From an uncultured Gammaproteobacteria bacterium (GTDB lineage Bacteria > Pseudomonadota > Gammaproteobacteria > Francisellales > Francisellaceae): a stretch of DNA of 64,000 bases. The notes beneath the pieces were generated by a model. The model did not search any database. It saw nothing but the letters and a program-made list of their open reading frames with translations, and was not told where the DNA came from. Numbering within the stretch: position 1 is the first letter of the stretch; every line of letters begins with the position of its first letter. The stretch lies in contig CAJXRW010000001.1 of assembly GCA_913060525.1 (NCBI GenBank), positions 289 to 64,288 of the forward strand, written 5' to 3'. Shown piece after piece: positions 26,572 through 42,513 of the stretch. The translations under genes and the position numbers were made by a program.

Positions 26572-26673
26572 ATGAAAATTAAAAACAAACTAATTATGAC
26601 TGGTCTTTTATCTGCAGTATCAATGTCTTTATTTGGGGCGATGCTCCTGAACTCCCACCACGATGCAATCTGA
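26572..26673 (+). pseudogene. 33-codon signal-peptide-like ORF that runs into transposon-end sequence (probable gene fragment)
   Basis: My translation gives MKIKNKLIMTGLLSAVSMSLFGAMLLNSHHDAI, with RBS AAGGGG upstream. From about 26646 the sequence belongs to the repeated Tn3-type end module. Confidence 0.35.
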
Positions 26674-26725
26674 CTATTTTATACTCATCATATTGCTGAT
26701 TTGTCCAAAATCTTTAGTTTGGCCC
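26646..26725 (-). repeat. Tn3-family transposon end module, right-type: terminal IR 26691-26725 plus subterminal repeat 26646-26675
   Basis: The reverse complement of 26691-26725 is GGGCCAAACTAAAGATTTTGGACAAATCAGCAATA. This matches the IR next to tnpA at 41761-41795 (GGGTTAAACTAAAGATTGTGGACAAATCGGCAAAA). The subterminal CCTGAACTCCCACCACGATGCAATCTGA is repeated, inverted, at 29971-29998 and 30381-30407. Confidence 0.8.
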
Positions 26726-26806
26726 AACTTTATATCCATTACTATCCTGTTCAAAATAATGCCATGACCCTTTTTTACCAGAATCCCGGCCCTGGTTTAA
26801 GTAACG

Positions 26807-27553
26807 TTAATTTTCAAAAATACTATAATTTTCTACATTCCAATAGTTTCCAATTTTATGAATCTGTCCTTGAACTGTTACACCTTCAATTTCGTAATGG
26901 ATTTTAAAGTTGATGTTATCATTAGTGGCATCCCATGTTTCGATATCAAGAACAGGTAAACCGTTAATATGTGCATTGGGATCTAAAAATTCTACTGGTT
27001 GATTGTATTTATTAACTGTTATATTGGTACCAAGATTTGCATTACTTTTAATTTTAAGTGGTTTGCGACCTGGTGTCTCAGGATGTAGGTAATATTGTAA
27101 TTGAGGATTATCAATGATTAATTTTATTACCACTCCTGTGTTATTTACGGCCTGAGCATGATGGTTTTTTGAGAACGGGTATGATCTAACAACATATCTT
27201 TCAACTTTCCTCGTACCCTGACCTATTATAAACGCAATTAAATACCTTTTATCATTATTTACCAAGGTGTAAGTAGGGAAAGAATCATAATTATAATAAG
27301 CATTAGGAGGGCCTAAGTATCCCTTTATCTCGCTGCTAGTCATTGAATAAATATCATTTGAGGTAACAAAAGAATATACCATTTCCGCACGTTCTTGGTT
27401 ATCAGCTGCAGCCCACCTTTCAACACTAAAAGATTCTGATCCAAATGATCTAAGCATGGTTTCATGCCAGGTATAAAACATAAAAAAAGTCGTAGATACA
27501 ATAATTAATGCAGCAAAAAAAATGATGGTTCTATTTTTCACGTATTGGCTCAA
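26807..27553 (-). CDS. membrane-anchored hypothetical protein (candidate immunity or accessory protein of the Hcp island)
   Basis: 248 aa with an N-terminal TM anchor (IIFFAALIIVSTTFFMF) followed by a soluble domain. TTG start 2 nt after the upstream stop. Confidence 0.5.
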   Translation of the reverse strand: MSQYVKNRTIIFFAALIIVSTTFFMFYTWHETMLRSFGSESFSVERWAAADNQERAEMVYSFVTSNDIYSMTSSEIKGYLGPPNAYYNYDSFPTYTLVNNDKRYLIAFIIGQGTRKVERYVVRSYPFSKNHHAQAVNNTGVVIKLIIDNPQLQYYLHPETPGRKPLKIKSNANLGTNITVNKYNQPVEFLDPNAHINGLPVLDIETWDATNDNINFKIHYEIEGVTVQGQIHKIGNYWNVENYSIFEN

Positions 27554-27555
27554 AA

Positions 27556-27939
27556 CTAGGCATGATCTTGATCTAGGCTCACATTATTTTCATTCTTTCT
27601 GGCTTTCTTTCTATAAAAGAAATAGGCAAGTATTAAAGGGGAAATTGGAAATAATGATATTACCATCACATAAATACTGAAATCAAAAATAATGCTTATA
27701 GACTGAGGGTAAGTAACGTAATACAGATGATAATACATATCAATATTAAAAATAATCTCGATCAATAACCAAGAGAAAAACATTTTCATTATGTTAGGTT
27801 TGAATGTAAATGAGAATATTAACAAAACAATATAGGCCCAAAAATATATGTATTCTGCACCTTCCAAAGTTTTCACTAAATATGAAGGGATAAGAAATAT
27901 CAAAGTATAAAATAGTGCATATATAAATGAAAATATCAT
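27556..27939 (-). CDS. small polytopic membrane protein (candidate immunity protein)
   Basis: 127 aa with about 4 TM helices. Start overlaps the stop of the DUF2778-like gene (4-nt overlap). Confidence 0.5.
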   Translation of the reverse strand: MIFSFIYALFYTLIFLIPSYLVKTLEGAEYIYFWAYIVLLIFSFTFKPNIMKMFFSWLLIEIIFNIDMYYHLYYVTYPQSISIIFDFSIYVMVISLFPISPLILAYFFYRKKARKNENNVSLDQDHA

Positions 27940-28379
27940 GGTTTTACCACCACCAATATTGGAGACTTCTGTTTGGCAATCATGTCAACTAAGCTGTTTG
28001 TAAGTCCATCCCCCCATAATCCGCCTCCAACATCGATACAGCCTGCAGATCCTGGAATACCGCCCCCATGTAGGAAAAAATTATTACGGCCAAATGTTTT
28101 GGTTTGTATTCTTGGGTGTAGCCGAATCCTAAAGTCACCCCAATCTGCTAGATGGAATACTGTTCTTGCAATATCATACAACGGATTTGGATCACTCAGC
28201 TCATGTGGATAAATATAATATTCACCAACTGGTAAAGGCCCTTCAAATGACTTTTTTTGGCAAGCTAAAGAGGGGTTATTTTTACATGAGCCTCTTCCTG
28301 ATGTGGCAAATAGTAATAAATCAAGTCCACCATCAGATGCAATTAATCGGCCTGTTTTAATATTAAAAACAATCTTCAT
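27936..28379 (-). CDS. DUF2778 / Tlde1-like L,D-transpeptidase-fold protein (candidate T6SS peptidoglycan-targeting effector)
   Basis: 147 aa with no signal peptide. FATSGRGSCKNNP...GPLPVGEYYIYP...FFLHGGGIPGSAGCIDVGGG carries the YkuD-like H-x(n)-S-x-G-C-I catalytic signature in the compact DUF2778 arrangement. Confidence 0.6.
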   Translation of the reverse strand: MKIVFNIKTGRLIASDGGLDLLLFATSGRGSCKNNPSLACQKKSFEGPLPVGEYYIYPHELSDPNPLYDIARTVFHLADWGDFRIRLHPRIQTKTFGRNNFFLHGGGIPGSAGCIDVGGGLWGDGLTNSLVDMIAKQKSPILVVVKP

Positions 28380-28394
28380 ACTGTACCCATTATT

Positions 28395-29114
28395 TTATTT
28401 CTTATAGGAAATAAATTCATTTTGAATATCCTTATATAGCTGATTCACCCATATTGGTTGTGATGAATTGACTTTTAATCGCTTCACTCTTGGATCATCA
28501 GGCGCAATAATGACTTTAATATTTTTAACACCAATCTTATTTGTTAGTACAAATAGTTCTTCTATCGCTTCATCACCCATCGCCAGACAGCCAACCGACA
28601 TATCTTTACCATGAATCATAATATTAGAACCTGGTGCACCATCTCTGCCATCTTCTTTAGCATGTTGCATATCAAATTTATTTGGGTAGTTAAGCTTCAT
28701 AGATAAATGGAATGCGCTATTTGGATTAAGCCATTCTATTTTATAGATCCCTTCTGGCACTTGATTATCGCCCTCTCGCAATTTTGGCCCTGACTCACCA
28801 CTAGCAGCTAAAACATCATAGGTTTTAATATAGGTGACCTGGTTATTTTCTTCTGCCCATAATTCAAGGGTTTTTTCTTGTTTAGTGGCCAACAATATAA
28901 TCTTTTCTGGTGGGTAATGCACTCTTGCTTTATTAAACGCTGGAATCAGTCGTTTTAGTGCTTCTTTTTGATACTGCTTTACTGCTTGTTCTGTTGTGCG
29001 CGTACCGACAATTTTAAGGTAATAAGGAAACCAAATGCCACGACCGTATTTGTAAAATACACCAGTTAAAATAACTGCAACTACAATAATAATGACGAAA
29101 AATAATTTATTCAT
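28395..29114 (-). CDS. membrane-anchored L,D-transpeptidase-fold protein, YafK-like
   Basis: 239 aa with an N-terminal TM. PEGIYKIEWLNPNSAFHLSMKLNYPNKFD...GSNIMIHGKDMSVGCLAMGDEAIEELF matches the YkuD/YafK pattern (IHG...S.GC). Confidence 0.7.
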   Translation of the reverse strand: MNKLFFVIIIVVAVILTGVFYKYGRGIWFPYYLKIVGTRTTEQAVKQYQKEALKRLIPAFNKARVHYPPEKIILLATKQEKTLELWAEENNQVTYIKTYDVLAASGESGPKLREGDNQVPEGIYKIEWLNPNSAFHLSMKLNYPNKFDMQHAKEDGRDGAPGSNIMIHGKDMSVGCLAMGDEAIEELFVLTNKIGVKNIKVIIAPDDPRVKRLKVNSSQPIWVNQLYKDIQNEFISYKK

Positions 29115-29139
29115 TATTGCCTATTAACCTTTACAATCG

Positions 29140-29664
29140 TTAGCCAGCATTTGTTGTATTAACATTACCTGTTACATTCGATAAGTTACACTCATGTTGG
29201 TATTGTTGAAATTTTAAAGACAAATGAATTGTCCCCATTCCTTTTGTAGCGTTTTCTCTTTGATCGCCTTGATTAGTGCTCATTCTTACAATGATTCCAT
29301 TCGTAAAAAGGCTTTTAGAAGTTACTCTGCCTTTACCTGTAGAGCCAACTCGATCAATTTGGATTAACTCTAATTCTTCGATGGTATCTTTATTATTCAT
29401 AACATTAAAAGCTAACGCTTTTACACTATGGTACATTGGCAAATCAAACCAAACTGATGTATCTAATGCTGCGTGTGAATGATCCGCACCACCAAAATTA
29501 CTATTATGAGGTTGTATAAAATCGATGCCCCAGTCATACACTAGGGAATGATCTTCACTTGCTGGAGAAGATGTAAAACTATTCCGACCAGCAACTTGTT
29601 CTGATCCAGCATTTTGAGTGATAACGCCTTGGTGCTTAGATTTTATTTTCATGTAAATTGGCAT
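29140..29664 (-). CDS. hcp: Hcp-like T6SS tube/chaperone protein (orphan)
   Basis: 174 aa. MPIYMKIKSKHQGVITQNAG..SEDHSLVYDWGIDFIQP..IEELELIQIDR..LFTNGIIVRM..IHLSLKFQQYQHE is collinear with the enterobacterial Hcp1-family sequence I recall (MPTPCYISIEGQTQGLITAGA..HEDEMLVQQFDHVVTVP..). No other T6SS core genes are in the window. Confidence 0.6.
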   Translation of the reverse strand: MPIYMKIKSKHQGVITQNAGSEQVAGRNSFTSSPASEDHSLVYDWGIDFIQPHNSNFGGADHSHAALDTSVWFDLPMYHSVKALAFNVMNNKDTIEELELIQIDRVGSTGKGRVTSKSLFTNGIIVRMSTNQGDQRENATKGMGTIHLSLKFQQYQHECNLSNVTGNVNTTNAG

Positions 29665-29920
29665 AAAAACCCTTAATTTATAATATTTTGGTATTGTTGT
29701 TATTTTATACTATATTTTCTTAGCTAGAAACCTAGTCTGCACTAACCATAATTAATCACATTCATCCAATGTTTGTGAAACAGTAATTTTAATGTGAAAG
29801 CTCTAAAGCCCTTTTATTATATGGTTCAGAAGGCAACAAAAAGTCGCTTGCTGTCTATTTACTAACGTATTCCTACTAGACACCTAGAGCGGAAGCTAGG
29901 CAAGCTAGTTGCTGCCAGAT

Positions 29921-30000
29921 CTAAACCGTAAATTTTACCACGAATGGGGTCGCTACCCCGTGATATGCAGTCAGATTGCATCGTGGCGAGAGTTCCGGAA
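29921..30000 (+). repeat. diverged Tn3-family end module (left-type)
   Basis: TCTAAACCGTAAATTTTACCACGAATGG...TCAGATTGCATCGTGGCGAGAGTTCCGGAA. It has the same spacing (48-49 nt) between the TAAAC core and the TCAGATTGCAT subterminal repeat as the 30329 copy. The terminal part is only weakly similar. Confidence 0.5.
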
Positions 30001-30328
30001 CACATGACCTAGAATGGCCAATAAAACTACCAGAGACCCCTAAAGACTACACAAGTCATCTTTGGCAGAAAAAAAAGGGTATCAGACAATATAATTCCAT
30101 TTAGACATTAATTTTGAAGAAACCGCACCAAATAACCAGGATATTGGTTGGACCTCCATAATGGTTAGTAGTTGAATATGATAATTATTATATAACAATA
30201 CAAAAAATATATAATTTCAGCTAGCTCCTATCAATAAACACCTATTAATCATATCCCATATCATTAAAAATGCTGGTTATTAAACTTGTACTTGAGTAGA
30301 GCTAGCTTTCAAAAACACTATAATTTTC

Positions 30329-30407
30329 GGTTAAACTAAATATTTTGGACAAATCAGCAAAATATTGTGCGATATATATTCAGATTGCATTGTGGTGTGA
30401 GTTCCAG
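30329..30407 (+). repeat. Tn3-family transposon end module, left-type: IR 30329-30364 plus subterminal repeat 30381-30407
   Basis: GGTTAAACTAAATATTTTGGACAAATCAGCAAAATA followed by CAGATTGCATTGTGGTGTGAGTTCCAG. This is an inverted copy of 26646-26725, with roughly 85% identity by eye. Confidence 0.8.
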
Positions 30408-30493
30408 ATCACTGACCAATATTGATGAAATATTTGCACTAGCTATTAATACCTTGATAAACTTGGCTTGTTTAAAAATTAACTAAGTAAATA

Positions 30494-31444
30494 ATGGTAG
30501 CACAACGCAAACCCTGGATATGCATAAAGGATCAAATAAAAATATTGCAAAATAGAGGGATGAGCATCACTGATCCAGATAAAGCGGAGCGATATCTTAG
30601 AAATATTAACTACTATCGTCTAAGTGGTTACTGGCATGCCTTTAGAAAATCAGAAAATCGCGTATTCAGTGAGCAATTTGTAGATGGTACATGTTTTTCA
30701 AATATTGTTGATTTATATTATTTTGATAAAAGATTACGCCTAACATTACTGGATGCTATTGAAAGAATTGAAATTGCTATCCGCACTAACCTTTGTCACT
30801 TGCTTGGTGAGTATGATCCCATTGCTCATTTAGATACCAAATATTTAAACAGTGTGTATGCTAACCAAATACTTAAATCGGGTAAGACAAGATACCAAGA
30901 ATGGCAACAGAACCATACGAAACAAATTAATAGAAGAAAAACACGATCTACATTTATCCAGCATAATATTAAAAAATATGGTGATGAACTTTCAGTATGG
31001 GTAGCCTGTGAAGCTTGGGATTTTGGTTTGTTATCGCATATGTTTAAGATGTTAAAACCAGAAGATAAAACCAAGATTTCCTTAAGTTATAATATTGCAA
31101 GTGGTGTGGTTCTTGAAAGTTGGATACATACAATTAATGATATTCGTAATATTTGTTCTCACCATGACAGGCTATGGAATAACAAAATGAAAATTCGGCC
31201 TAAATATCATCCACTATTATCGCATTTACATCAATTTAAAGATAATCATGATGAATTTAATTTTTATTTATCAAGAGTATTTACAGTGATCATCATTATA
31301 AATGAATTTATCAAAGCAATTAATCCTACATCAAAATGGGTAGCCAGGATAAATAGTTTAATTAATGATTTTCCAAGCCATGATAATGGTAGGGTTAACT
31401 TAATTGAAATGGGTGTGCCTGATAATTGGCAGGAATACATTTAG
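30494..31444 (+). CDS. Abi_2 family abortive-infection protein (AbiD/AbiF-like)
   Basis: 316 aa. N-terminal QIKILQNRGMSI..AERYLRNINYYRLSGYWHAFR and downstream IRNICSHHDRLWN are the hallmark motifs of the Abi-like (Abi_2) family. Confidence 0.8.
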   Translation: MVAQRKPWICIKDQIKILQNRGMSITDPDKAERYLRNINYYRLSGYWHAFRKSENRVFSEQFVDGTCFSNIVDLYYFDKRLRLTLLDAIERIEIAIRTNLCHLLGEYDPIAHLDTKYLNSVYANQILKSGKTRYQEWQQNHTKQINRRKTRSTFIQHNIKKYGDELSVWVACEAWDFGLLSHMFKMLKPEDKTKISLSYNIASGVVLESWIHTINDIRNICSHHDRLWNNKMKIRPKYHPLLSHLHQFKDNHDEFNFYLSRVFTVIIIINEFIKAINPTSKWVARINSLINDFPSHDNGRVNLIEMGVPDNWQEYI

Positions 31445-31595: not shown

Positions 31596-31848
31596 GGCTC
31601 ACAGTAAAGATTGTGGACAAATCGGCAATATATCGATCAATACTCGATTGTCAGCAGGAAATAAAAGTAAACTCATCCTAATTAATCTCAATTAAACAAC
31701 GTAAGTACTGGAAATATTAGGATTAGTGACCGCATAACTAATTATGGATATTTGAGCCATCAGGAAGTCAAATATTAAAGATACCACTTCTTTAGTTATA
31801 TTTTGAAACACATTCTGACTATTTGTCCACGATTCTTAGTTCTAGGCC
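31596..31848. mobile_element. miniature Tn3-derived element (TIME-like, ~253 bp, non-coding)
   Basis: The left IR at 31596-31630 (GGCTCACAGTAAAGATTGTGGACAAATCGGCAATA) is type A. The right IR at 31811-31848 (reverse complement GGCCTAGAACTAAGAATCGTGGACAAATAGTCAGAATG) is type B. These are the same two IR types that bound the tnpI-tnpA transposon, in the opposite order. Confidence 0.7.
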
Positions 31849-31899
31849 AAATTTGAGATACTTGAAACGTGATTCAAACAAATTATAAATAGGGTTAAT

Positions 31900-32103
31900 A
31901 TGAGCAGGTTTAATAGCAATCAATATGAAGATGGTACATATAAAAGTATTCAAATTGATACACAAGATTCAACTCATAAAAAAATTAATGCTAGATGATC
32001 AGTCGTGCAATTAAGGAAATTGAACTCTAGGCCAAGAAAAATTCTAAATTTTTTGACGCCGCAGAAATTCCATGTCAAGATAAAATTACGTTTGCTAGTT
32101 TAA
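31900..32103 (+). pseudogene. IS30-family transposase C-terminal remnant with in-frame TGA
   Basis: My translation gives MSRFNSNQYEDGTYKSIQIDTQDSTHKKINAR*SVVQLRKLNSRPRKILNFLTPQKFHVKIKLRLLV. LNSRPRK.L.F.TP..F is the conserved C-terminal signature of IS30-family transposases. No upstream DDE region is present. Confidence 0.5.
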
Positions 32104-32157
32104 TCCGCCAAACTACTCATAAACATGAATCATTTTTCCTAGAACAAAGGTTTTAAT

Positions 32158-32718
32158 TTGGACATTCAAAAAGAAAAAATACATACTAGAAATATAATTG
32201 CAGATGGGTTTCGTCGAAATGATGGCCTATATGAGTTAGAAGCCAGTATATCGGACTGTAAGCATTACGAATTTCATAATGACTATATTGGTAAAGTTAA
32301 ACCTGGGCAATTTTTCCATAATATGAAAATTCAAATGGTATTAGATGCGTCACTAACCATTATTGATATAAAAGCAGAAACATTGGCTTCGCCTTTCGAA
32401 ATGTGTCCAAAAATTACTTCAAATTATAAAAAATTAAAAGGTATAAAAATTGATTTTGGATGGCCAAGAAGTGTAAGAAATATTGTTGGCAAGACAAAAG
32501 GATGTACTCATATAACAGAGTTATTACTCTATATAGGAACAGTAGCAATACAAACAATTTATGGAGATAAACAAAATCATGTCAGCAAAAAAAGTAAATT
32601 TGGTAAAGGATTAATCAACTCTTGTCATGCATGGGCTGAAAGCTCGCCAGTGACTAAAAAATATTTTCCTGAATACTGGCTTGCAGCAAGCACTGAGGAT
32701 AAATCAGCGAACTCCTAA
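32158..32718 (+). CDS. DUF2889-like protein
   Basis: 186 aa with a TTG start. RRNDGLYELEASISD...FHNMKIQMVLD...CPKITSNYKKLKGIKI...GKTKGCTHITELL matches my recollection of DUF2889 (GC-T-H-L-x-E-L core). Function unknown. Confidence 0.45.
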   Translation: MDIQKEKIHTRNIIADGFRRNDGLYELEASISDCKHYEFHNDYIGKVKPGQFFHNMKIQMVLDASLTIIDIKAETLASPFEMCPKITSNYKKLKGIKIDFGWPRSVRNIVGKTKGCTHITELLLYIGTVAIQTIYGDKQNHVSKKSKFGKGLINSCHAWAESSPVTKKYFPEYWLAASTEDKSANS

Positions 32719-32770
32719 CATATTGACATCAATTCGTTAAAGTTGTTGCATTTCTTTCCGACTAGTTACT

Positions 32771-33205
32771 TTAAATAATCGATAAAATATTACTACGAAT
32801 TTTTAACAAACTATCTACCAATATTTCATAATCCTTTCGATTAATACCATCAATGGCTTCTTCTAAAACTTCGTTTCCCAAGCTACGCAAGACACCTAAT
32901 AATGGTTTAACTCTATTTGTTAAATAAATGAGCTTTACACGTCTATCAGCTGGATCATTACGTCGTTCAACCCAATTGTTCTTTACTAATCGATCAATCA
33001 TTCTTGTCATAGAAATAGGTTGAACATCTAGGAGATTAGTTAAATCAGTTTGACGAATACCATTATGGTGTTTTAAATGAAGCAAGACAAGCCATTGCGC
33101 TCTCGTTAAACCTAATTCACTGGCTTTGCTGTCAAATTTTTTACGCAACAAGCGTGTAATATCCTGTATAATGAATCCTAAGCTTTCTTCATTGTCTTCA
33201 GACAT
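32771..33205 (-). CDS. MarR-family transcriptional regulator (EmrR-like)
   Basis: 144 aa with a winged HTH: LTRAQWLVLLHLKHHNGIRQTDLTNLLDVQPISMTRMIDRLVKNNWVERRNDPADRRVKLIYLT. Divergent from the efflux operon. Confidence 0.88.
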   Translation of the reverse strand: MSEDNEESLGFIIQDITRLLRKKFDSKASELGLTRAQWLVLLHLKHHNGIRQTDLTNLLDVQPISMTRMIDRLVKNNWVERRNDPADRRVKLIYLTNRVKPLLGVLRSLGNEVLEEAIDGINRKDYEILVDSLLKIRSNILSII

Positions 33206-33422
33206 ACTTTCTCTATTTATTGTGTTTTTGGTTACGCTTATTAAATTTAAGTATACTGAATCATATACTGAATAACGATAGTTACTGGAATTTCACCTTT
33301 AATCATCTTATCTCCAGATATTAATATTAAAAACAAACTGGTAGCCTTGACAGTTCATATCAAATGTTACTAAATTGACTTAAATATATTATAAGCATGG
33401 CTTAATATAAGCAAAGGCAATA

Positions 33423-34949
33423 ATGACTAGCATATCCGAAAAATCATTTTGGTCACAACCACGAACTCTTGTTGCCTATGCGTTAAGCTTATTAGCATTA
33501 GCTGAAATTGTAGATTTAACGATTGTAGCAGTTGCTGTTCCTCAGATTATGGGGTCAATTGGCGCTGATATTGACAGTATCGCCTTGGTTACAACAAGCT
33601 ATATAGTTGCTGCTGCCGTCTGTATTTTATTGTCAGGTCTAGTGATTCGGAAATTTGGTATGCGAAAAGTTACCATTATTTCTGCTATTGTATTTTGTGT
33701 TTCATCCATCCTCTGCGGGACATCTACTTCGCTATTTGAGATGGTATTATTTAGGATCATTCAAGGCATTGGTGGGGCATTTCTCCCCGCAATTGCTCAA
33801 GCCTATATTGCACAAAAATTTAAAAATAAAGAACAACAAATCATGATGACTATTTTTAGCTTGATCGTGGTCATGGGTCCAATAATTGGACCCATACTCG
33901 GCGGCGCACTATGTGAAAACATGACGTGGCGCTGGATCTTTTATGTAAATGTTCCAATTTGTATTATTGCGTTATTAATCATCTGGGTTTGGATGGAAAA
34001 AGATCATGTAAAAGACACTAAGATTGATTATATAAGTTTCTTATTGATGGCGTTTGGTATCGGTCTTTTAGAATATGTTATCGATGAAGGAAACAGTGAC
34101 AATTGGTTCGAATCTTTTTCTATTATTATTACCTTCTTCAGCTCACTAATCTTATTAGGCTTTTTTATTTGGCGAGGAATATTGGGGCAATCTATTGTTA
34201 AACTTTCATTGTTTAAGAATTATAATTTTGTCTTATCCTGTTTTACCATGTTTGTTTTTATCACATTCGCAACAGGCTCTTTGGCTTACTTTCCAACAAT
34301 GTTACAACAAAGCTATAATTATCCTGTAGATTTAGCTGGTTATATTACAGCACCTAGAGGAATAACTGCTATCTGTACAGCATTGATTATGCCAAGAATT
34401 ATCCCACTTATTGGGGCAAGAATGGTCATTTTTTTTGGCATGATTCTTTTTTCGGCTGGATGTTTTTTACTATCAAGTTATGGACCTGCTGTTAGTAAAG
34501 GGTTGGTCATATTTTCCATGATTTTACAAGGTATTGGTATGATGTCATTTTTTGCACCCATTATGAGTATTGCTTATGTAGGTATTGCAGATGAAGATAG
34601 CAGCGATGCTTCTGGCATCTTCAATTTTTTTAGAAATTTTGGAAGCTCGGTAGGAACTTCATTAGCAGCCACCATCATCTCACATCAATCACAAGTTAAT
34701 TATCATGGTCTAGGTGGTCACATCTCTCCGTATGCTAGAGGGTTTGAATGGTGGTCGCAGGATCTATCTGGCTTTTCAGATCAACATATAATCGCCATAG
34801 CTAATCAAGAACTCATCAAACAATCATCATTTATTAGCTACCTTGATTCATACCATCTTTTTGCCATTGGCATGCTCTGTATACTGTGGGTTCCCTTATT
34901 AATGAAAAGATCAAAGAAAAAAGCAACCACCACCCCTAAACATCATTAA
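33423..34949 (+). CDS. MFS DHA2-family (EmrB/QacA-type, 14-TM) efflux permease
   Basis: 508 aa with about 14 hydrophobic helices. Motif-A-like GLVIRKFGMRKV and motif-C-like GPIIGPILGG. Followed by a membrane-fusion protein and an OMF. Confidence 0.88.
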   Translation: MTSISEKSFWSQPRTLVAYALSLLALAEIVDLTIVAVAVPQIMGSIGADIDSIALVTTSYIVAAAVCILLSGLVIRKFGMRKVTIISAIVFCVSSILCGTSTSLFEMVLFRIIQGIGGAFLPAIAQAYIAQKFKNKEQQIMMTIFSLIVVMGPIIGPILGGALCENMTWRWIFYVNVPICIIALLIIWVWMEKDHVKDTKIDYISFLLMAFGIGLLEYVIDEGNSDNWFESFSIIITFFSSLILLGFFIWRGILGQSIVKLSLFKNYNFVLSCFTMFVFITFATGSLAYFPTMLQQSYNYPVDLAGYITAPRGITAICTALIMPRIIPLIGARMVIFFGMILFSAGCFLLSSYGPAVSKGLVIFSMILQGIGMMSFFAPIMSIAYVGIADEDSSDASGIFNFFRNFGSSVGTSLAATIISHQSQVNYHGLGGHISPYARGFEWWSQDLSGFSDQHIIAIANQELIKQSSFISYLDSYHLFAIGMLCILWVPLLMKRSKKKATTTPKHH

Positions 34950-34970
34950 TGATTGAGACAAGGACAAGAA

Positions 34971-35945
34971 ATGAAAATAAATAAAAAATTTATCATTGGG
35001 TTTACCATCGTAATAGTGGTGGCTAGCAGTATCTTTGGGTACTACATTTACACTTCGCTTTTTCCTGAAACGGATGATGCCTATATAAACGCTCACACTA
35101 TTGATATTGCCCCAAGAATAGAAGGTTTTATCAAAAGCATTAATGTTGAAAATAACCAGTATGTCCATGAAGGTGATTTATTATTAGAAATTGATCCAGC
35201 CGACTATCAGTTACAACTGGCCGAAGCAAAACAAAATTACTTGATTGCTAAACAAAAGTTGAATAATGCCGCACAACAAATTACAACCGCAGAAACAAAT
35301 GTTCGAAAGACTACCTCTGATTACGAATTTGCGCAGCAAATGGCTGAACGGTATCAACACTTATTTGAAAACAAAGCAGGATCTATGCAAGACATGCAGA
35401 AATATGACAATCAAAAAGACACAGCATTTGAAGCGTTAGAGCAAGCGAAGATTTCACTTGAGAATAGCAATACCCAATATCAAATTGCTCAATCTGAAAT
35501 TGAAATAGCCAAAACTAAAATAGATAATTCTAAACTGAATTTATCTTATACTAAAATTTATGCTGCAGTTGATGGCTTTATTGGTAACCTAAATTTACAA
35601 CGTGGACAACTTGTATCAGCTGGACAGAAACTTTTTGTCTTAGTTGATGACCATAAGTGGTGGGTGGATGTCAATTTGAAAGAGACACAACTTAGTCGTA
35701 TTAAACCAGGTCAGCCCGCTAAAATTGAATTGGATATGTATTCTCATACCTTCCACGGCACAGTAGAAAGTATCAGCCCTGCAAGCGGTACAAGCTTTTC
35801 TCTATTACCCGCTCAAAATGCTTCAGGGAACTGGGTCAAGGTTACACAACGATTCACCGTAAGAGTAAAGGTGGAAGATGATCCTAAATACCCACTCCGA
35901 ATCGGTGCCAGTGCTGTTGTTTCCATCAATACATTAGACAGTTAA
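34971..35945 (+). CDS. HlyD/EmrA-family membrane fusion protein
   Basis: The ORF is open from a TTG at 34953, but the ATG at 34971 has AAGGA upstream. Single N-terminal TM, long coiled-coil (QLQLAEAKQNY...), lipoyl/beta-barrel segments (VEGDLLLEIDP, YAAVDGFIGNLNLQRGQ). Confidence 0.85.
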   Translation: MKINKKFIIGFTIVIVVASSIFGYYIYTSLFPETDDAYINAHTIDIAPRIEGFIKSINVENNQYVHEGDLLLEIDPADYQLQLAEAKQNYLIAKQKLNNAAQQITTAETNVRKTTSDYEFAQQMAERYQHLFENKAGSMQDMQKYDNQKDTAFEALEQAKISLENSNTQYQIAQSEIEIAKTKIDNSKLNLSYTKIYAAVDGFIGNLNLQRGQLVSAGQKLFVLVDDHKWWVDVNLKETQLSRIKPGQPAKIELDMYSHTFHGTVESISPASGTSFSLLPAQNASGNWVKVTQRFTVRVKVEDDPKYPLRIGASAVVSINTLDS

Positions 35946-35957
35946 TAGGGATAGATC

Positions 35958-37463
35958 ATGGGTAAAATTCACCTATTACAAATTATCAATAAAAAAATAT
36001 TATACCTATCCATTAGCTTCATTCCGTTTATCACTGGTTGCGGCCTCTTTGGTCCAGAGTACAAAAAACCAGGAATTGACTCGCCAACTGCCTGGAATAG
36101 TCACAGCAGGCAAACAGAAACGACTCAAACCTATATGCCAGACTTTGCTTGGTGGGAACAATTTAATGATCCTCAGTTAAATAAGCTAATTACAGACGCC
36201 TTGGAGAATAATAATAATATTCAAATCGCTATAGGTAATATTCTTCAGGCTAAGGCATCTTTACGTAAAGTAAATTATTCTTGGCTACCTACTGCCAATG
36301 TAAATGGTTTAGTTAGCGTTGGACAGGTTTTTGGCACTAATTTCACCAACAAAAGTGGTAACCCTCAATTAAATAGTTTAGGTCAAAATAGCTCGCAAGG
36401 TTTCTATAGTTACGGTGGTGGCTTTATGCCAAGCTATTCTGTCAACATTATGAAACAATTAAAATCTGGTGATATTGCGAAGCTTAATGTTTCATTACAA
36501 GAGCAAGCAAAAAATGCTGTTCGGCTAACCATTATTGGTCAGGTTGCTGGTAGTTATTTTGAACTTTTGGGTACACAAAAACAACTTAAGTTACAAGAGC
36601 AAACTATTAAAGATGCTGAAACATTAAAAAAATATGCCCTAGTCCAATATGAAGCAGGAAAAGTATCTGAACTGAATATCATTGGACTAGAACAATTTAT
36701 TGCCACATTAAAAGAACAAATACCTAATCTTAAGCAGAATATTACGCAATATCAAAATACATTACGTTTATTAACCAATCATAATCCAGGGAAAATAATT
36801 ACGCACAATCATTTTGATCAGATTGAAACTGACCAAATCATTCCAATAAACCTACCCTCAGAAATTTTAAAGGCTCGCCCTGATATCGCGGTTTCAGAAC
36901 ATCAATTACAAATTAGTAATACCAAAATAGGTTTGGCAACCTCCTCATATTTTCCTTCTATTTCTTTAACAGGTTTATTAGGTGGTGCATCAACTCAATT
37001 AACCAATTTATTCTCTATGGGTATGGGTGTATGGATGGCAGGTTTACAAGCAGGCATGCCAGTATTTGATATGACCATTTCAGCAGAAAGGGATGAAGCC
37101 AAAGCCGAATATTACTCTAATTATTACCGCTACATTGAAACAGTCCGAAATGCTTTTATGGAAACAGATAATGCCTTATCTCAAAATAAAAATATTAATA
37201 TGAGTTATCTTCAGCAAAAACAGGCATTATTAAAAGCAAATCAGCAGCTTCAACTCGCTGAGATGCAATATGAATATGGTGCAATAAGCTATAATGACGC
37301 ATTAGCTTTCAAATTAAATGCGGATTACATGACGGTTAATTTGAACAAATCGAAAATGAATCAAATGGACAGTATTGTTAATTTATATCTAGTCTTTGGT
37401 GGTGGTTATAATATTAATAATTCCGATATACCAAAACAGTTTGGTGATGACCATGATATATAA
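35958..37463 (+). CDS. outer-membrane factor lipoprotein (NodT/TolC family)
   Basis: 501 aa with lipobox ITGC. PEYKKP...WW..FNDPQLNKLI start typical of NodT-family OMFs, and two repeated coiled halves. Confidence 0.88.
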   Translation: MGKIHLLQIINKKILYLSISFIPFITGCGLFGPEYKKPGIDSPTAWNSHSRQTETTQTYMPDFAWWEQFNDPQLNKLITDALENNNNIQIAIGNILQAKASLRKVNYSWLPTANVNGLVSVGQVFGTNFTNKSGNPQLNSLGQNSSQGFYSYGGGFMPSYSVNIMKQLKSGDIAKLNVSLQEQAKNAVRLTIIGQVAGSYFELLGTQKQLKLQEQTIKDAETLKKYALVQYEAGKVSELNIIGLEQFIATLKEQIPNLKQNITQYQNTLRLLTNHNPGKIITHNHFDQIETDQIIPINLPSEILKARPDIAVSEHQLQISNTKIGLATSSYFPSISLTGLLGGASTQLTNLFSMGMGVWMAGLQAGMPVFDMTISAERDEAKAEYYSNYYRYIETVRNAFMETDNALSQNKNINMSYLQQKQALLKANQQLQLAEMQYEYGAISYNDALAFKLNADYMTVNLNKSKMNQMDSIVNLYLVFGGGYNINNSDIPKQFGDDHDI

Positions 37464-37465
37464 AA

Positions 37466-37496
37466 AATATTAAGGCTGGTCTTATATCTTAATATT
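37466..37496 (+). terminator. weak AT-rich hairpin after the efflux operon
   Basis: AATATTAAG (37466-37474) pairs with CTTAATATT (37488-37496) around a 13-nt loop, 3 nt after the OMF stop. There is no strong T-tract. Confidence 0.3.
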
Positions 37497-37801
37497 TATG
37501 GCAAGTTAACTGTATGTTGGCATAAAATCATACTAGATTTTAAAAGGTTAATCAGTTATTGACCTTTTGTTTCTAAGTTAGATGGGTAAATCATGGTCTA
37601 GAACTAAGGGTTGTTGGCAAATAGACAGAATGGTTATCAAAATATAACCATAACTGACTGAACTCCTTAAATTTAATAGCAAAATCTATGAAATAGGATG
37701 CGTCCATAATCAATATTATGCGATTAGAAAATTGTATTTTCTATACTTATTATATTAAAAGAGCTACATTATCTAATATAAATGTGATCGTATAATAATT
37801 T

Positions 37802-38677
37802 ATGGCTAAAAACTACTTAATTGAGCGTTACGTTGAGCACCTGACTTCTCAGGATAAATCACAGTCCACGATTATAAGCTATCGTTCAGATTTGTATTTA
37901 TTTGCAAAGTGGTTTGAACAAGTCAACCATGAGGAATTGAAAGCACATACCATTACACCAACAGACTTAAGAGCCTATAAACAGTATTTAATTGATTACC
38001 CATTTAAGCCCATGACCATTAATCGCAAAATATCAGTCATTAATTTATTTGTCATTTGGTTATTAGATACAGATCGAATCAAATCACGTATTCCACTACC
38101 TAAGTTAGTTAAGCTAACCCAAACTGCTCCTAAGTGGCTGGATAAAAATCAACAACACTTTATGCTACGTCATTTAGAAAAACATGGTAATGAGCGAGAC
38201 CTAGCTATCGTTAGACTTCTATTAAATACTGGCTTGCGTGTTAATGAGCTAATTTCTTTGCAATGGAGCGATGTATCACTATCAACAAAAAAAGGAATGA
38301 TTCACATCCGTTACAGTAAAGCAGCCCGCTATCGAGATATACCGCTAAATAAGGATGCTCGATTTGCTTTAACTGCATTAGGGTATAGCTCTAAATCTAA
38401 ATCATCTGAACCAATTTTTGAAGGTCAAAAAGCCAGGCTTGATGTACGAGGTGTTCAATTGTTATTAAAGCGTCGATTCAAGCATACTGACTTAGACTTT
38501 ATTTCACCCCATATATTACGCCATACATTTTGTAAAAACTTAATGAATGCAGGTGTAAGTTTAGAGAAAGTCGCTTTATTAGCAGGTCATGAAAGTCTTG
38601 ATACTACTAAAGTTTATTGTCAACCTTCATTTAATGATCTAACCGAATCAGTTGAGCGAATTGGAGAGCAAGAGTAA
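37802..38677 (+). CDS. tnpI: tyrosine recombinase, TnpI-like cointegrate resolvase
   Basis: 291 aa. N-terminal SAM-like core-binding domain, then catalytic R (TGLRVNEL), HILRHTF, GHESLDTTKVY. Stop abuts the tnpA start (TAAATG). Confidence 0.85.
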   Translation: MAKNYLIERYVEHLTSQDKSQSTIISYRSDLYLFAKWFEQVNHEELKAHTITPTDLRAYKQYLIDYPFKPMTINRKISVINLFVIWLLDTDRIKSRIPLPKLVKLTQTAPKWLDKNQQHFMLRHLEKHGNERDLAIVRLLLNTGLRVNELISLQWSDVSLSTKKGMIHIRYSKAARYRDIPLNKDARFALTALGYSSKSKSSEPIFEGQKARLDVRGVQLLLKRRFKHTDLDFISPHILRHTFCKNLMNAGVSLEKVALLAGHESLDTTKVYCQPSFNDLTESVERIGEQE

Positions 38678-41600
38678 ATGAGCCAATTTCATATTTTACA
38701 TTACCACGAAATCGAGAAATTTAAACAACCACCACGCTTCTCCAAAGATGAACGTATGAAAGTCTTTGTTCTCGATCTTCAGATTAATAATCTGCTAAAA
38801 GGTCTAAAACGATCTGATGAAAATAAAGTAGGTTTTTTATTGCAACTGGGGTATTACAAGACCACAAACAAGTTCTTTAGAGCTGAATATTTTAAGTCGG
38901 CTGATATTTATTATGTTAGCCAATTACTCAATGTAAATGTTAGTCCAAAATCAATGAAATTGAATTATAAAGACAGGACGCGTACTGAACATACCAAGAA
39001 GGTATTAGATTGTTTAGGGCATGAACCTTATTTACATTATGAGGACTTAATTGAAGAGAATGTGGTTGAGATGGTGGAAAAGCAACAGCATCCAAAACAA
39101 ATTATGTTCTCGATTATTGATTTATTACGAGAAAAAAGAATATCAATACCCAGTTATGATTATTTTTGTAAAGTATTAACGGATCATTTCAGGGACTTTG
39201 AAAAGTCATTATTAGATAAGCTGGAAAGTTTATTATCAGGACAACAATGCCAAGCATTTGATGACTTGTTAGATGAAGGTAAACCATTTGAACATTCTTT
39301 ACTAACAAAACTCAAAACAATTAATCAATCGGTTCAGCCTGTGAATATCAAAGTATCAATTCAGTATTTTTTGATTCTTAAACGACTTTACCAAGAACTC
39401 AAAGATGTTATTGATCAATTGGGCATTTCAACAGAAGCCATTAACTTTTATGCTGGTTGGGTTAAAAAGGCGCAAACCAGAACACAAATACAAGAAATCA
39501 TGAATGAGAACAGACAGCGCTTGTATTTGTTATCATTCATTATTTTCCAGCACCGTCACTATGAAGATACGCTGCTGGATATACATCAGAAATGTGTTGG
39601 TCAGTATATTAAACAGATTGAAAAGGAAGTTGACCAAACAAAACTACAAGATGCGGATGAAAAAGATAGTTTAGGCGAATCAGTTATAAATGGTTATCAA
39701 TCTAAAGCGGAAACCATTAAGAATGCACGCCAGGTCATCCATGAGCCATCTATCGAAAATGATAAGAAAATTGATATCCTAAAATTTATTATTCCTGAGA
39801 CCCAAACAAAACAAGAAACAGAATCAGATCAAGCAGTTGAACAACTTCAAGAAGAATTATCAGATGCAATTAAACAAGCCAAACGCTTTAATATAATGCT
39901 TGCAAATGCAAGCAAATTACATCAGCGAGTAGCTGATATTGTCAAACACTTAAGCTTTACCTCAAATGATCCTGTATTAGAAAAAGCCATTGTTTATTAC
40001 CAAACACAAAGTAAAGTTACAAAAAATGCGCCAACTGATCATCTGAGTAAAGAGGAGTATGAGGCAGTATTCAATAATGGTAAATTTGAAATACAGCTTT
40101 ATAAAAGTATTTTATTTACCCATATTTATGAGGGGATTAGATCAGGATCAATAAGCTTAATTCATTCCTACAAATATTTACCTATCGAAAGTTATATGTT
40201 AGATGAGGAAAATTGGCATTTGCATCGTGATCATATCCTGCAACGGTTAGGATTAGAGAAATTTGCGGATATAGAGGCATTACTAACCAAATTAAAGCAA
40301 CAACTTGATCCTACTTACCTTAGAGTGAATGAAAATATTCTCAAACGAGAAAATAATTATGTTCGATTTACCAATGGTAAAGGAAAATTCATTATTAATA
40401 CCCCGCCAATTGAAAAGCCAGATTATCAAGGTTTAGCTAAGCTATTTAGCGAGCATGAGAATATTCCAATTCTTAATATTATTAGACGTATGGATCTCTA
40501 CACTAATATCTCATCCTCTTTTCGTCACTATAAAGTTAGAAATAATCTGATAAAACCCTCGAGGGAGATTTTCTATGCAGGTTTATTTGCATTAGCAAGC
40601 AATATGGGAGCCTACCAATTATCCAATACATCCATAGGGATTAATTATGATAAATTAGCCCATGCCATTACTTGGTACTTCACCTTGGATAATCTATATG
40701 AAATTAATGAAATGATATTAGATTTCATGCAAAAACTAGAGGTAACCAATCTATTTAAGAAAGAGAAAAATTTACTTCACTCATCAAGCGATGCGAAAAA
40801 ACGCATTGTTACTGCTGAATCATTAAATGCTAATTATTCATATAAATATTTTGGTCAAGGCAAAGGTTCAAACGTCTATATGTTTGTTGATGAACGAGGC
40901 TTCTTTTTTTATTCCAATGTCTTTAGTAGTGCTGAAAGAGACGCGGCTTATGTTATAGATGGTCTCATGCACAGCAATAGTATCAAGGTTGACATACATT
41001 CAACCGATACCCATGGTTACAGTGAAATGGTGTTTGCTTTAAGCCACCTACTGGGTATTACATTTGCACCACGGATAGCTAATATACAAGAGCAGGTATT
41101 ATCTTATTTTGATTATCCTGAAAGTCTTCTGGAAAATACCAATTTTCGAATCATACCAACACACCCAATCAATCTAAGCTCTATAAAAAAGCATTGGGAA
41201 TTGATATTAAGACTATTAGCTAGCATCAAAACAAAGAACTTCAAAGCTTCTACAATTTTGAAGCGTTTATCAACTTATACTAAGCAACACGCTTTGCAGC
41301 AAGCTATAAAAGAATTTGGAAAGATAATTAAGTCTATTTTTATTCTTGAATATATTGATAACGTTACCTTGCGCCAAGATATAGAAAAGCAACTCAACAA
41401 GGGCGAGCTAGCTAACCGTTTCTCAGGGGTTGTTTCATTTGCAAATAACCAAGAAATTACTCAAGTACATCGAGAAGACCAAGAAATATCAGCCATGTGT
41501 AAGCTCATAGTACAAAACATGATTATCGCCTGGAACTATATTGAATTGACCAAAATAATTATGCGATCACAATCAAAAGAAGAAAGAGATAAATTAATTA

Positions 41601-41731
41601 AAAATATAAAGGAACTATCTATTATCTCATGGCAGCATATCAATATGTTTGGGCTATATGACTTCAGCTCACTTGAAGCTGGAAATGACTCGGAATTTGA
41701 TCTTGATCAGATATTGGCTTTTCAGGCATAA
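38678..41731 (+). CDS. tnpA: Tn3-family DDE transposase
   Basis: 1017 aa. Hallmark C-terminal catalytic region DIHSTDTHGYSEMVFALSHLLGITFAPRI, and a size typical of TnpA(Tn3). Confidence 0.93.
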   Translation: MSQFHILHYHEIEKFKQPPRFSKDERMKVFVLDLQINNLLKGLKRSDENKVGFLLQLGYYKTTNKFFRAEYFKSADIYYVSQLLNVNVSPKSMKLNYKDRTRTEHTKKVLDCLGHEPYLHYEDLIEENVVEMVEKQQHPKQIMFSIIDLLREKRISIPSYDYFCKVLTDHFRDFEKSLLDKLESLLSGQQCQAFDDLLDEGKPFEHSLLTKLKTINQSVQPVNIKVSIQYFLILKRLYQELKDVIDQLGISTEAINFYAGWVKKAQTRTQIQEIMNENRQRLYLLSFIIFQHRHYEDTLLDIHQKCVGQYIKQIEKEVDQTKLQDADEKDSLGESVINGYQSKAETIKNARQVIHEPSIENDKKIDILKFIIPETQTKQETESDQAVEQLQEELSDAIKQAKRFNIMLANASKLHQRVADIVKHLSFTSNDPVLEKAIVYYQTQSKVTKNAPTDHLSKEEYEAVFNNGKFEIQLYKSILFTHIYEGIRSGSISLIHSYKYLPIESYMLDEENWHLHRDHILQRLGLEKFADIEALLTKLKQQLDPTYLRVNENILKRENNYVRFTNGKGKFIINTPPIEKPDYQGLAKLFSEHENIPILNIIRRMDLYTNISSSFRHYKVRNNLIKPSREIFYAGLFALASNMGAYQLSNTSIGINYDKLAHAITWYFTLDNLYEINEMILDFMQKLEVTNLFKKEKNLLHSSSDAKKRIVTAESLNANYSYKYFGQGKGSNVYMFVDERGFFFYSNVFSSAERDAAYVIDGLMHSNSIKVDIHSTDTHGYSEMVFALSHLLGITFAPRIANIQEQVLSYFDYPESLLENTNFRIIPTHPINLSSIKKHWELILRLLASIKTKNFKASTILKRLSTYTKQHALQQAIKEFGKIIKSIFILEYIDNVTLRQDIEKQLNKGELANRFSGVVSFANNQEITQVHREDQEISAMCKLIVQNMIIAWNYIELTKIIMRSQSKEERDKLIKNIKELSIISWQHINMFGLYDFSSLEAGNDSEFDLDQILAFQA

Positions 41732-41826
41732 TTTAAACTATGATTAAATATAGAACAACATTTTGCCGATTTGTCCACAATCTTTAGTTTAACCCATATT
41801 TAGTCGTAATTTCCCACCAGTATAAT

Positions 41827-42513
41827 TTATCGTTTATGTCGGAATTTGGTTTTATATTTCTCTAGGTGTGTGGCTTGTGGTGATACCTTATCATATGCTT
41901 TTGATGCAAAATGATTTTGCTCCAAGTCTGCAGTTATTTTTGATGTTCCTGGTACTAAATTCTGAGAGATTAGTCTTTCCATAGGCTTATAGTTAACATG
42001 GTGTGTACCGGCGATACTCGCTTGAATATAAGCTTGTTTACTCATATTTCTCCATTGAATATTATAACCATACTGCTTGGCCAGTGATGTAATAAATAGT
42101 CGGTTTGCACGCCCATTGCCCTCTCTGAATGGATGGGCCGCATTAATCTCATTAAAATATTCAGATAATTTATGACTCAGATCACCACGATTCAATTCAT
42201 GTAAATTTTCCTGGTTCAACCTTTTAAATAGCTTGCTAAGCTCTGGCTCTATTCGGTGCGGCATGGCAAATAAGGTACTACCTTTTGATATATCAATGCT
42301 GCGAACTGATCCAGCCCACGGATAGATGTCACCAAATAAATGCTTGTGGATCTGCTTCAGGTGATCTAAATCAAACTTACCTTTAGGTGCTGGCTGTATA
42401 TAACGTTTACTTACAACTTTCTTTTCTAATTCAGCTAACTGTTTAGTATTTTTTATATTGAGAGAATTGATAAGGGTTTGAGTACCAGGATAAAGATAAG
42501 GATCTTGCGCCAA
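41827..42513 (-). CDS. fic: Fic-family (Fido) protein, E. coli Fic-like AMPylase toxin
   Basis: 228 aa. N-terminal DPYLYPGT as in E. coli Fic, and active-site motif HPFREGNGRANR (HPFx[D/E]GNGRxxR). Strongly basic C-terminal tail EKYKTKFRHKR. Confidence 0.9.
   Translation of the reverse strand: MAQDPYLYPGTQTLINSLNIKNTKQLAELEKKVVSKRYIQPAPKGKFDLDHLKQIHKHLFGDIYPWAGSVRSIDISKGSTLFAMPHRIEPELSKLFKRLNQENLHELNRGDLSHKLSEYFNEINAAHPFREGNGRANRLFITSLAKQYGYNIQWRNMSKQAYIQASIAGTHHVNYKPMERLISQNLVPGTSKITADLEQNHFASKAYDKVSPQATHLEKYKTKFRHKR

Follow-up and report, generated by a model that had tools for sequence, protein, structure and literature searches.

An orphan Hcp gene beside a Tlde1-family toxin gene on a conjugative plasmid: a probable auxiliary type VI secretion module associated with Francisellaceae

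What might a gene for the tube protein of a type VI secretion system (T6SS) do on a plasmid, next to genes for two proteins of the L,D-transpeptidase fold and two membrane proteins? The question is raised by a five-gene cassette in contig CAJXRW010000001.1 (assembly GCA_913060525.1), of which we analyzed the 64,000 nucleotides from position 289 to 64,288, hereafter referred to as the window. A first-pass annotation had read these genes as an Hcp-dependent cell-wall toxin cassette lying between transposon ends, in an arrangement not described before, and had proposed a decoy-type immunity factor or a repair enzyme among its products. We found that the core of this proposal held, namely an Hcp-fold tube protein, an effector of the Tlde1 family and an adjacent immunity candidate, while the novelty, the decoy and the enclosure by a transposon did not. 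The cassette is probably an orphan (auxiliary) T6SS module, carried as cargo of a conjugative-plasmid backbone and firing through the canonical T6SS of its host. A specialized Hcp/TssD paralog of 174 aa would be loaded, within its ring, with the 147-aa toxin, and the toxin-loaded Hcp would be fired by a canonical T6SS that the host encodes at another locus. The toxin, a small leaderless peptidoglycan L,D-carboxypeptidase/transpeptidase of the Tlde1 family, would act in the periplasm of the target cell, and the cognate immunity protein would be a multi-pass inner-membrane protein of 127 aa, the gene of which is coupled in translation to that of the toxin. A 239-aa YkuD enzyme resembling YafK/DpaA is probably a captured paralog of a periplasmic housekeeping amidase, at most an accessory enzymatic factor and dispensable for explaining the toxin/immunity pair, and a 248-aa protein would be lineage-specific cargo.

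The five co-oriented open reading frames (ORFs) occupy positions 26807-29664 of the minus strand, with intergenic gaps of 25, 15, -4 (an ATGA overlap) and 2 nt in order from the 174-aa gene to the 248-aa gene. Hydropathy analysis showed one N-terminal transmembrane (TM) segment in each of the 239-aa (residues 3-21) and 248-aa (residues 9-27) proteins and several hydrophobic segments in the 127-aa protein, as compared with none in the 147-aa and 174-aa proteins. The first-pass description of tightly packed genes, of two TM-anchored proteins and of a multi-TM protein whose start overlaps the preceding stop was thus accurate. The same annotation saw no other T6SS core genes in the window, and Pfam scans of 55 ORFs, approximately all the non-nested window ORFs of at least 100 aa, detected no VgrG, PAAR, TssA-M or ClpV. 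With no core genes in the cassette, it would depend on a T6SS from another locus. Its assignment to a conjugative element was also confirmed by the Pfam matches in the window, which include DnaB, VirB3/4/6/8/9/10/11, VirD4 and a UvrD-type helicase, and by a MobA-type relaxase-primase of 2092 aa with helicase and primase domains. Proteins of the window are on record from a 65.8-kb contig, indicating a plasmid of ~66 kb of which the window is nearly the whole; its GC content is ~35%. Megablast searches of PLSDB with the cassette and with 25 kb of flank gave no nucleotide match. The cassette is also present on four other metagenome contigs at 99.8-100% identity, and all its ORFs are intact and 99.8-100% conserved over five contigs. 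The match of contigs L001 and L004 to the window ends at 26165, inside a DUF4852 gene, and L002, L003 and L005 continue at 100%; the cassette is thus common to two or more plasmid variants.

Is the 174-aa protein, designated Hcp-like at first pass, a genuine tube protein? When 1.84 billion representative proteins were searched exhaustively with a profile, no more than 42 relatives came to light, 39 of which were used to build a family alignment and profile. This profile matched Vibrio cholerae Hcp (5mxn) end to end (E = 2.3e-7), as well as Hcp3 and another TssD in the PDB. A model calculated with AlphaFold2 from the 39-sequence alignment reached a pLDDT of 87.6 and a pTM of 0.81, superseding a poor model (pLDDT 46.6) from five close sequences. 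When this model was compared with the PDB using Foldseek, nearly all of the 50 listed matches were T6SS Hcp structures or Hcp1-containing constructs, the best being 6a2v (E = 6e-12), and the top matches had TM-scores of 0.77-0.80; the model thus shows the Hcp beta-barrel, a fold of ~160-175 residues. A word-index profile search with an Hcp alignment returned just 8 proteins, and a scan of a genome collection with a close Hcp alignment found no locus.

The assignment is settled by genomic context, because relatives of the 174-aa protein occupy the tssD slot of T6SS clusters. A relative with 46% identity (P0006) is LO80_01655 of Francisella endociliophora FSC1006 (CP009574; locus L024, 10001-10525), which lies directly upstream of the genes for PP2C (PppA), Fha, TssJ, TssK, TssL and TssM and is annotated as 'hypothetical' despite this position. 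Another, with 30% identity (P0007), lies between TssB/C/F/G and TssJ/K/L in contig L031. The 174-aa protein is, therefore, a genuine TssD/Hcp of a divergent clade, as the first-pass annotation had supposed. Pfam PF05638 touches only one of the 39 family members (E = 0.019), and our search of the literature on Francisella, Hcp and plasmids yielded nothing on the family. F. endociliophora FSC1006 and Francisella philomiragia GA01-2794 are reported to carry two extra Escherichia coli-like T6SS clusters besides the Francisella pathogenicity island (FPI), a statement that goes back to a single 'data not shown' remark (PMC7431613). The cluster tube LO80_01655 belongs to the same clade as the window Hcp; those clusters of the T6SS subtype i (T6SSi), however, consist of chromosomal core genes, whereas the window Hcp is a plasmid-borne paralog without core genes. 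At 5432-20528 of L031, a 48-kb contig, we observed a T6SSi core cluster directly abutting a VirB-type type IV secretion system (T4SS) cluster composed of TrbC, VirB3, VirB4, VirB8, VirB9, VirB10 and VirB11.

Members of the clade were also found in other surroundings. A 4-kb plasmid of F. philomiragia GA01-2794 encodes a homolog of the 174-aa protein; in locus L012 the clade Hcp is followed by phospholipase-like genes, in locus L009 by a lysozyme/SLT-like gene and a signal-peptide protein, and on F. philomiragia plasmids (L007/L008) by helical membrane proteins. This combination of a clade Hcp with effector-like genes and small partners is the usual Hcp-linked effector/immunity layout. On the 4-5-kb F. 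philomiragia plasmids, where the Hcp is likewise annotated as a 'hypothetical protein', the mutually similar helical membrane proteins beside the orphan Hcp are ~205-220 aa long and may be toxins.

The 147-aa protein had been described as leaderless and DUF2778-like, and both parts were confirmed. It contains the motif FFLHGGGIPGSAGCI quoted at first pass, has no hydrophobic leader and no TM segment, and matches Pfam PF10908 (Tlde1_dom) over residues 25-116 with 40.5 bits, above the gathering cutoff of 30.1. Upon alignment with three homologs, G47, P50, G52 and Y54 of a G47-P-x-P-x-G-x-Y54 motif were invariant, as were the blocks W80-G-D, H104-G-G and G110-S-A-G-C114-I-D. A profile of the four sequences retrieved Tlde1a (7uo8/7uma) as the top PDB match over the catalytic region, with W80, H104 and C114 aligned to W90, H121 and C131 of Tlde1a and with the same 10-residue offset from His to Cys. 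A single-sequence PDB search gave only chance matches to YEATS domains; a metagenome scan with one Tlde1 alignment found nothing, and a scan with another hit a single protein, of 926 aa, through a partial match of no relevance. The catalytic pocket of Tlde1a is formed by H121, H129 and C131, and the enzyme, toxic in the periplasm, is an L,D-carboxypeptidase and an L,D-transpeptidase that exchanges D-amino acids. The Cys pair C32/C40 of the window toxin is conserved (C33/C41 in the divergent module on contig L014, described below), may form a disulfide in the target periplasm, and fits action in that oxidizing compartment. The size of the toxin fits the established model of small effectors inside Hcp rings, and the toxin would be loaded into the window Hcp in this way.

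Which gene product would protect the producer cell? A divergent second version of the module occurs in L014 (6312-8510; JGI 3300036355 Ga0401695_00680) and L015, a ParA/ParB plasmid-like contig. It was found in two samples, both of which also contain the window-type plasmid (for which the source samples include JGI 3300036355, SRR12363488 and ERZ23500212), and one community or one host apparently carries both versions. Four of the five cassette genes, those for Hcp, YkuD, Tlde1 and the 127-aa protein, are kept there, rearranged in order and orientation. The YkuD proteins of the window and of L014 are 75% identical, the toxins 54%, the Hcps 35% and the 127-aa proteins ~26%; despite this low identity, the last gene keeps its position, its size and the 4-nt overlap. 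This fastest divergence is as expected of an immunity protein, as immunity proteins are reported to diverge faster than Tlde1 effectors and the Tai7 subfamily to have TM immunity proteins (10.1101/2020.02.18.954545). A third context is a plasmid of Photobacterium damselae (NZ_CP090491; L033, 6812-7707), on which a Tlde1-domain gene (46% identity, with the S-A-G-C motif) is overlapped by a following 87-aa gene with three TM segments, with no Hcp or YkuD nearby. The annotated 65-aa N-terminal extension of this P. damselae Tlde1 may be a mis-called start; the plasmid also encodes a terminase and ParM and may be a phage-plasmid. Thus, a small polytopic membrane protein overlaps the toxin stop in the window, in L014/L015 and in P. 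damselae. Because the pair of toxin and membrane protein recurs in these three contexts and the partner diverges fastest, the 127-aa protein, which has no family match in Pfam or NCBIfam, is the best candidate for immunity.

The 248-aa protein might instead be the cognate immunity protein, or provide immunity to a lost or foreign effector, since most immunity proteins against peptidoglycan-targeting effectors carry a periplasmic domain and its gene belongs to the same operon, 2 nt past the 127-aa gene. We consider this improbable, as neither the second module nor the P. damselae context has the 248-aa protein, while a small TM protein follows the toxin in every case, and as it finds no match in Pfam, NCBIfam or the PDB. 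It is found in L001-L005 with 99.6% identity (gene callers on identical contigs call the ORF as 244 aa), with no homolog in L014/L015, and is outside the conserved core of the module.

The role of the second L,D-transpeptidase-fold protein was less apparent. The 239-aa protein contains the motif IMIHGKDMSVGCL quoted at first pass, and its classification there as a YafK/YkuD-type protein was correct: it scores 35.6 bits against Pfam YkuD (cutoff 23.4) and matches E. coli DpaA (8ikr) with E = 1e-18 and with the HG...SxGC residues aligned. With NCBIfam NF040599 (LdtF_DpaA_YafK) it scores 90.4 bits, far below the equivalog cutoff of 365. The window enzyme shares with E. coli DpaA/LdtF/YafK (8IKR, PMC10653827) the YkuD fold, the HG...S-x-G-C motif, the periplasmic location and a similar size; it differs in scoring below the equivalog cutoff, in an N-terminal TM anchor that looks uncleaved, and in being plasmid-borne within a toxin operon. 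Judging from these comparisons, it should be called YafK-like rather than DpaA. A search at E<=1e-10 returned 4978 homologs, many of them 50-60% identical and on Mb-scale contigs. The nearest homologs beyond the two modules have hemE, queG, tsaE, amiC and mutL as neighbors, with no Tlde1 or Hcp near them, and the window protein is, by its sequence relationships, a recruited paralog of a widespread housekeeping periplasmic amidase.

The first-pass annotation had considered that this enzyme could be a decoy, an immunity factor that would work by binding or titrating the toxin, with which it shares the fold and a neighboring position. This is very unlikely, because the YkuD protein diverges slowly and its active site is intact. 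Immunity by binding co-diverges with the toxin, whereas here the YkuD protein is conserved at 75%, as compared to 54% for the toxin and ~26% for the TM protein; the catalytic residues are kept, housekeeping homologs in the thousands share 50-60% identity with the protein, and the P. damselae context does without it. Moreover, the translationally coupled TM partner would already fill the immunity slot.

Repair of self-damage, the other role proposed at first pass, is a possibility that we regard with some doubt. As an accessory, enzymatic form of immunity, the YkuD protein would hydrolyze aberrant products of Tlde1 linked through meso-diaminopimelic acid (mDAP) in the producer's periplasm, and protection would be independent of toxin binding. 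Its gene is co-located with those of Tlde1 and Hcp in two modules despite rearrangement, its catalytic His and Cys are intact and face the periplasm, and its conservation at 75% would suit an enzyme with an invariant substrate better than a protein that binds the toxin. Its nearest relatives are single chromosomal housekeeping copies, so that the plasmid copies would be extra, recruited paralogs. The closest solved relative, DpaA, hydrolyzes an L,D-transpeptidation product, the Lpp-mDAP bond (PMC10653827). However, there are just two such modules and they are not independent, as both plasmids share an integrase at 78% nucleotide identity, and the P. damselae Tlde1 context has no YkuD. Hydrolysis of mDAP-X bonds would lead to tripeptides, which are also made by the Tlde1 carboxypeptidase, so the logic of rescue is incomplete, and we found no experimental precedent. 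The closest parallel would be the enzymatic immunity protein Tri1, which reverses ADP-ribosylation by the effector Tre1. It is, in our estimation, rather doubtful that the YafK/DpaA-like amidase represents a new kind of toxin-independent enzymatic immunity or repair, erasing the L,D-transpeptidation damage of Tlde1, and that the module as a whole reveals an uncharacterized antibacterial T6SSi arsenal in Francisellaceae, a family known just for the anti-eukaryotic FPI. The repeated occurrence of a YafK/DpaA-type enzyme beside a toxin of the L,D-transpeptidase fold nevertheless provides a lead, inexpensive to test, on how enzymes may protect cells from cell-wall effectors.

Several observations weigh against an auxiliary T6SS module. 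Curated models fail to recognize its Hcp: Pfam PF05638 gives no match to the 174-aa protein at E<=1, and TIGR03344 aligns over its full length with 26.6 bits, below the cutoff of 58.9. The link from the toxin profile to Tlde1a in the PDB is marginal (E = 0.022), and the equivalent of Tlde1a His129 is Ala in all four homologs, which gives S-A-G-C in place of the [S/T]-H-G-C of DUF2778 enzymes; the Tlde1a H129A variant retains exchange but loses much crosslinking and some carboxypeptidase activity. Because the position of H129 is Ala, the S-A-G-C subgroup may have a shifted activity profile. What assigns the 127-aa protein to immunity is synteny, and the 248-aa protein, with its periplasmic domain, offers an alternative. 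Finally, the contig of P0005, an Hcp relative with 72% identity, ends 171 bp past the gene. P0005 is chromosomal and lies beside housekeeping genes; the S1 protein adjoining it is 96% identical to that of a Francisellaceae single-cell genome, and the best PLSDB match of the plasmid DnaB is a Cysteiniphilum plasmid. These sequence affinities indicate that the plasmid host is probably an uncultured member of the Francisellaceae.

The cassette could also be silent cargo, if its usual hosts have no compatible T6SSi, or the toxin could be delivered by another route, such as the T4SS of the plasmid. Classical Francisella use the FPI system, with IglC instead of Hcp as its tube; genes for DUF2778 proteins occasionally lie close to those of a T4SS (10.1101/2020.02.18.954545), and the T4SS genes of the window are 4 kb away. 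We find both variants hard to credit, however. The ORFs have stayed intact and nearly identical over the five contigs, and Francisellaceae with canonical T6SSs that use the window Hcp clade exist; T4SS export has no use for a dedicated Hcp, and the toxin, being approximately the Tlde1 domain alone, has no extra C-terminal domain to serve as a T4SS signal. We continue to favor a module that would fire through a canonical T6SS of the host.

The claim of the first-pass annotation that the arrangement was undescribed did not stand. The original Tlde1 study reports that DUF2778 effectors adjoin orphan Hcp genes (10.1101/2020.02.18.954545), and orphan Hcp islands have been surveyed and found enriched on conjugative plasmids (PMC13098142). 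Hence the neighborhood of Tlde1 and orphan Hcp, the bicistronic and sometimes TM-type immunity, and the presence of orphan islands on conjugative plasmids are all known. In common with Tlde1/Tldi1 (Tae5-7/Tai5-7; Sibinelli-Sousa et al. 2020; Lorente Cobo et al. 2022, PMC9638812), the window has a single-domain leaderless DUF2778 protein of ~16-19 kDa with catalytic His and Cys, in a bicistron with a fast-evolving candidate immunity gene; such effectors are often beside an orphan Hcp, and one subfamily has TM-type immunity proteins. The window toxin, in contrast, is only distantly related to Tlde1a and carries the H129-to-Ala change; its candidate immunity gene is downstream and overlapping, whereas the Salmonella immunity gene is upstream; and the module is probably Francisellaceae-hosted, with a YafK-like gene embedded in the operon. 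As in the surveyed orphan or auxiliary Hcp islands (PMC13098142), the hcp gene stands beside effector/immunity genes but apart from any core T6SS genes, and its conjugative plasmid carries signatures of mobile elements nearby. Unlike those islands, the window plasmid lacks a nucleotide match in PLSDB and its Hcp clade is undetected by PF05638, so surveys with hidden Markov models probably miss islands of the window type.

We also examined the surroundings of the cassette (Table 1). Six copies of an inverted repeat (IR) of the Tn3 type were found in the window. Those with tips at 26725 and 30329 are each extended to ~104 nt by a shared subterminal repeat, and both tips point at the cassette; their flanks, AACTTT and ATTTTC, differ. 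We detected no target-site duplication around the cassette and no left-side partner IR within the window, and the cassette-flanking IRs are absent from the other loci. Hence, the geometry of outward-facing transposon ends reported at first pass is real, and the ends are indeed Tn3-type IRs, but the cassette is outside any complete transposon. Its position inside a transposon was ruled out by the direction of the IR tips, the lack of a target-site duplication and the lack of a partner end. An origin of the cassette from a cointegrate or a composite transposon was considered as a possibility; neither a target duplication nor an outer partner IR was found for it. The demonstrated vehicle of the cassette is the conjugative plasmid.

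Table 1. Positions of the cassette genes, their flanks and the neighboring transposon in the window.
Feature	Position	Strand	Basis or remark
Orphan Hcp/TssD tube protein, 174 aa, 19 kDa	29140..29664	-	profile, structure model, context of relatives
Membrane-anchored periplasmic YkuD-fold enzyme, YafK/DpaA subfamily, 239 aa	28395..29114	-	H168...S173-V-G-C176 intact
Tlde1/DUF2778-family effector, 147 aa, 16.0 kDa, leaderless	27936..28379	-	Pfam, four-sequence profile
Candidate cognate immunity protein, multi-pass membrane protein, 127 aa	27556..27939	-	ATGA overlap with toxin stop, synteny
248-aa protein, one N-terminal TM helix and predicted periplasmic domain	26807..27553	-	TTG start, hydropathy
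Non-coding leader upstream of hcp, 654 bp	29665..30318	-	presumed promoter region
Left flanking arm, Tn3-type terminal IR, tip 26725, interior to left	26631..26734	-	IR core with 2 mismatches to transposon IR
Right flanking arm, Tn3-type terminal IR, tip 30329, interior to right (toward Abi_2), with subterminal repeat	30319..30422	+	IR core with 3 mismatches
Composite Tn3-family transposon, 10.2 kb	31596-41795		ATATTT duplicated at both junctions; real insertion next to cassette
IR-bounded mini-element, 254 bp	31596-31848		part of the 31596-41795 transposon
Cargo: DUF2889, MarR, MFS-HlyD-OEP efflux pump	32158-37463		part of the 31596-41795 transposon
Minimal TnpI-TnpA transposon	37594-41795		part of the 31596-41795 transposon

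The subterminal repeat of the left arm overlaps the 3' end of a 33-aa ORF, MKIKNKLIMTGLLSAVSMSLFGAMLLNSHHDAI, at 26573-26671. This 3' end recurs at 29962-30003 and 30371-30412, giving three copies of the repeat, two of which stand directly within a Tn3-type IR; the copies at 29962-30003 and 30371-30412 would specify, on the minus strand, a similar peptide end, ...NS(H/R)H(D/N)AI followed by a stop. The copy at 29962-30003 is an extra one that falls within the leader upstream of hcp. In this leader we found no convincing ORFs, and scans for promoters and terminators gave background-level signals. The leader, with a GC-richer patch, was also considered as a noncoding RNA and rejected: Rfam gave no match, whether with the gathering score or with E<=1 as the limit, no tRNA was detected, and the fold is unremarkable (z = -0.84).

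The composite transposon next to the cassette is absent from contig L001, in which the empty site reads GCATATTTAGTCG. In this ancestral backbone, an abortive-infection-like Abi_2 gene (30494-31444 of the window) and a Fic/DOC gene (41827-42513) are adjacent; the insertion of the transposon has separated them in the window. Genes of mobile-element or defense type occur elsewhere in the window as well: an Eco57I-type N6 methylase (55147-56319), two tyrosine recombinases (at 58219-59148 and at 60761-61300), a PIN-domain protein of 505 aa (59250-60767) and, at 61501-63787, a TniA/TniB-like pair that carries a Mu-transposase C-terminal domain and AAA_22. A co-oriented block at 3332-9322, comprising a spermidine synthase, a 361-aa protein, a 665-aa HATPase_c protein, a 283-aa protein, a methyltransferase and a 190-aa protein, may be a small biosynthetic or defense operon on the plasmid.

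Taken together, what this locus adds to the published picture is modest but real: an Hcp clade associated with Francisellaceae that is unrecognized by Pfam and by genome annotation, an S-A-G-C subgroup of Tlde1 and an embedded YafK-like gene, and evidence of trade in antibacterial T6SSi effectors within a family known for the FPI. Since standard models and annotation miss this Hcp clade, surveys of T6SSs and of orphan islands likely undercount the Francisellaceae lineage. The Francisellaceae have otherwise been studied almost only for the atypical, host-directed secretion system of the FPI. The module suggests a plasmid-borne exchange of ready-made T6SS ammunition among marine and environmental Francisella relatives, in the form of a tube paralog, a cell-wall toxin and an immunity gene.

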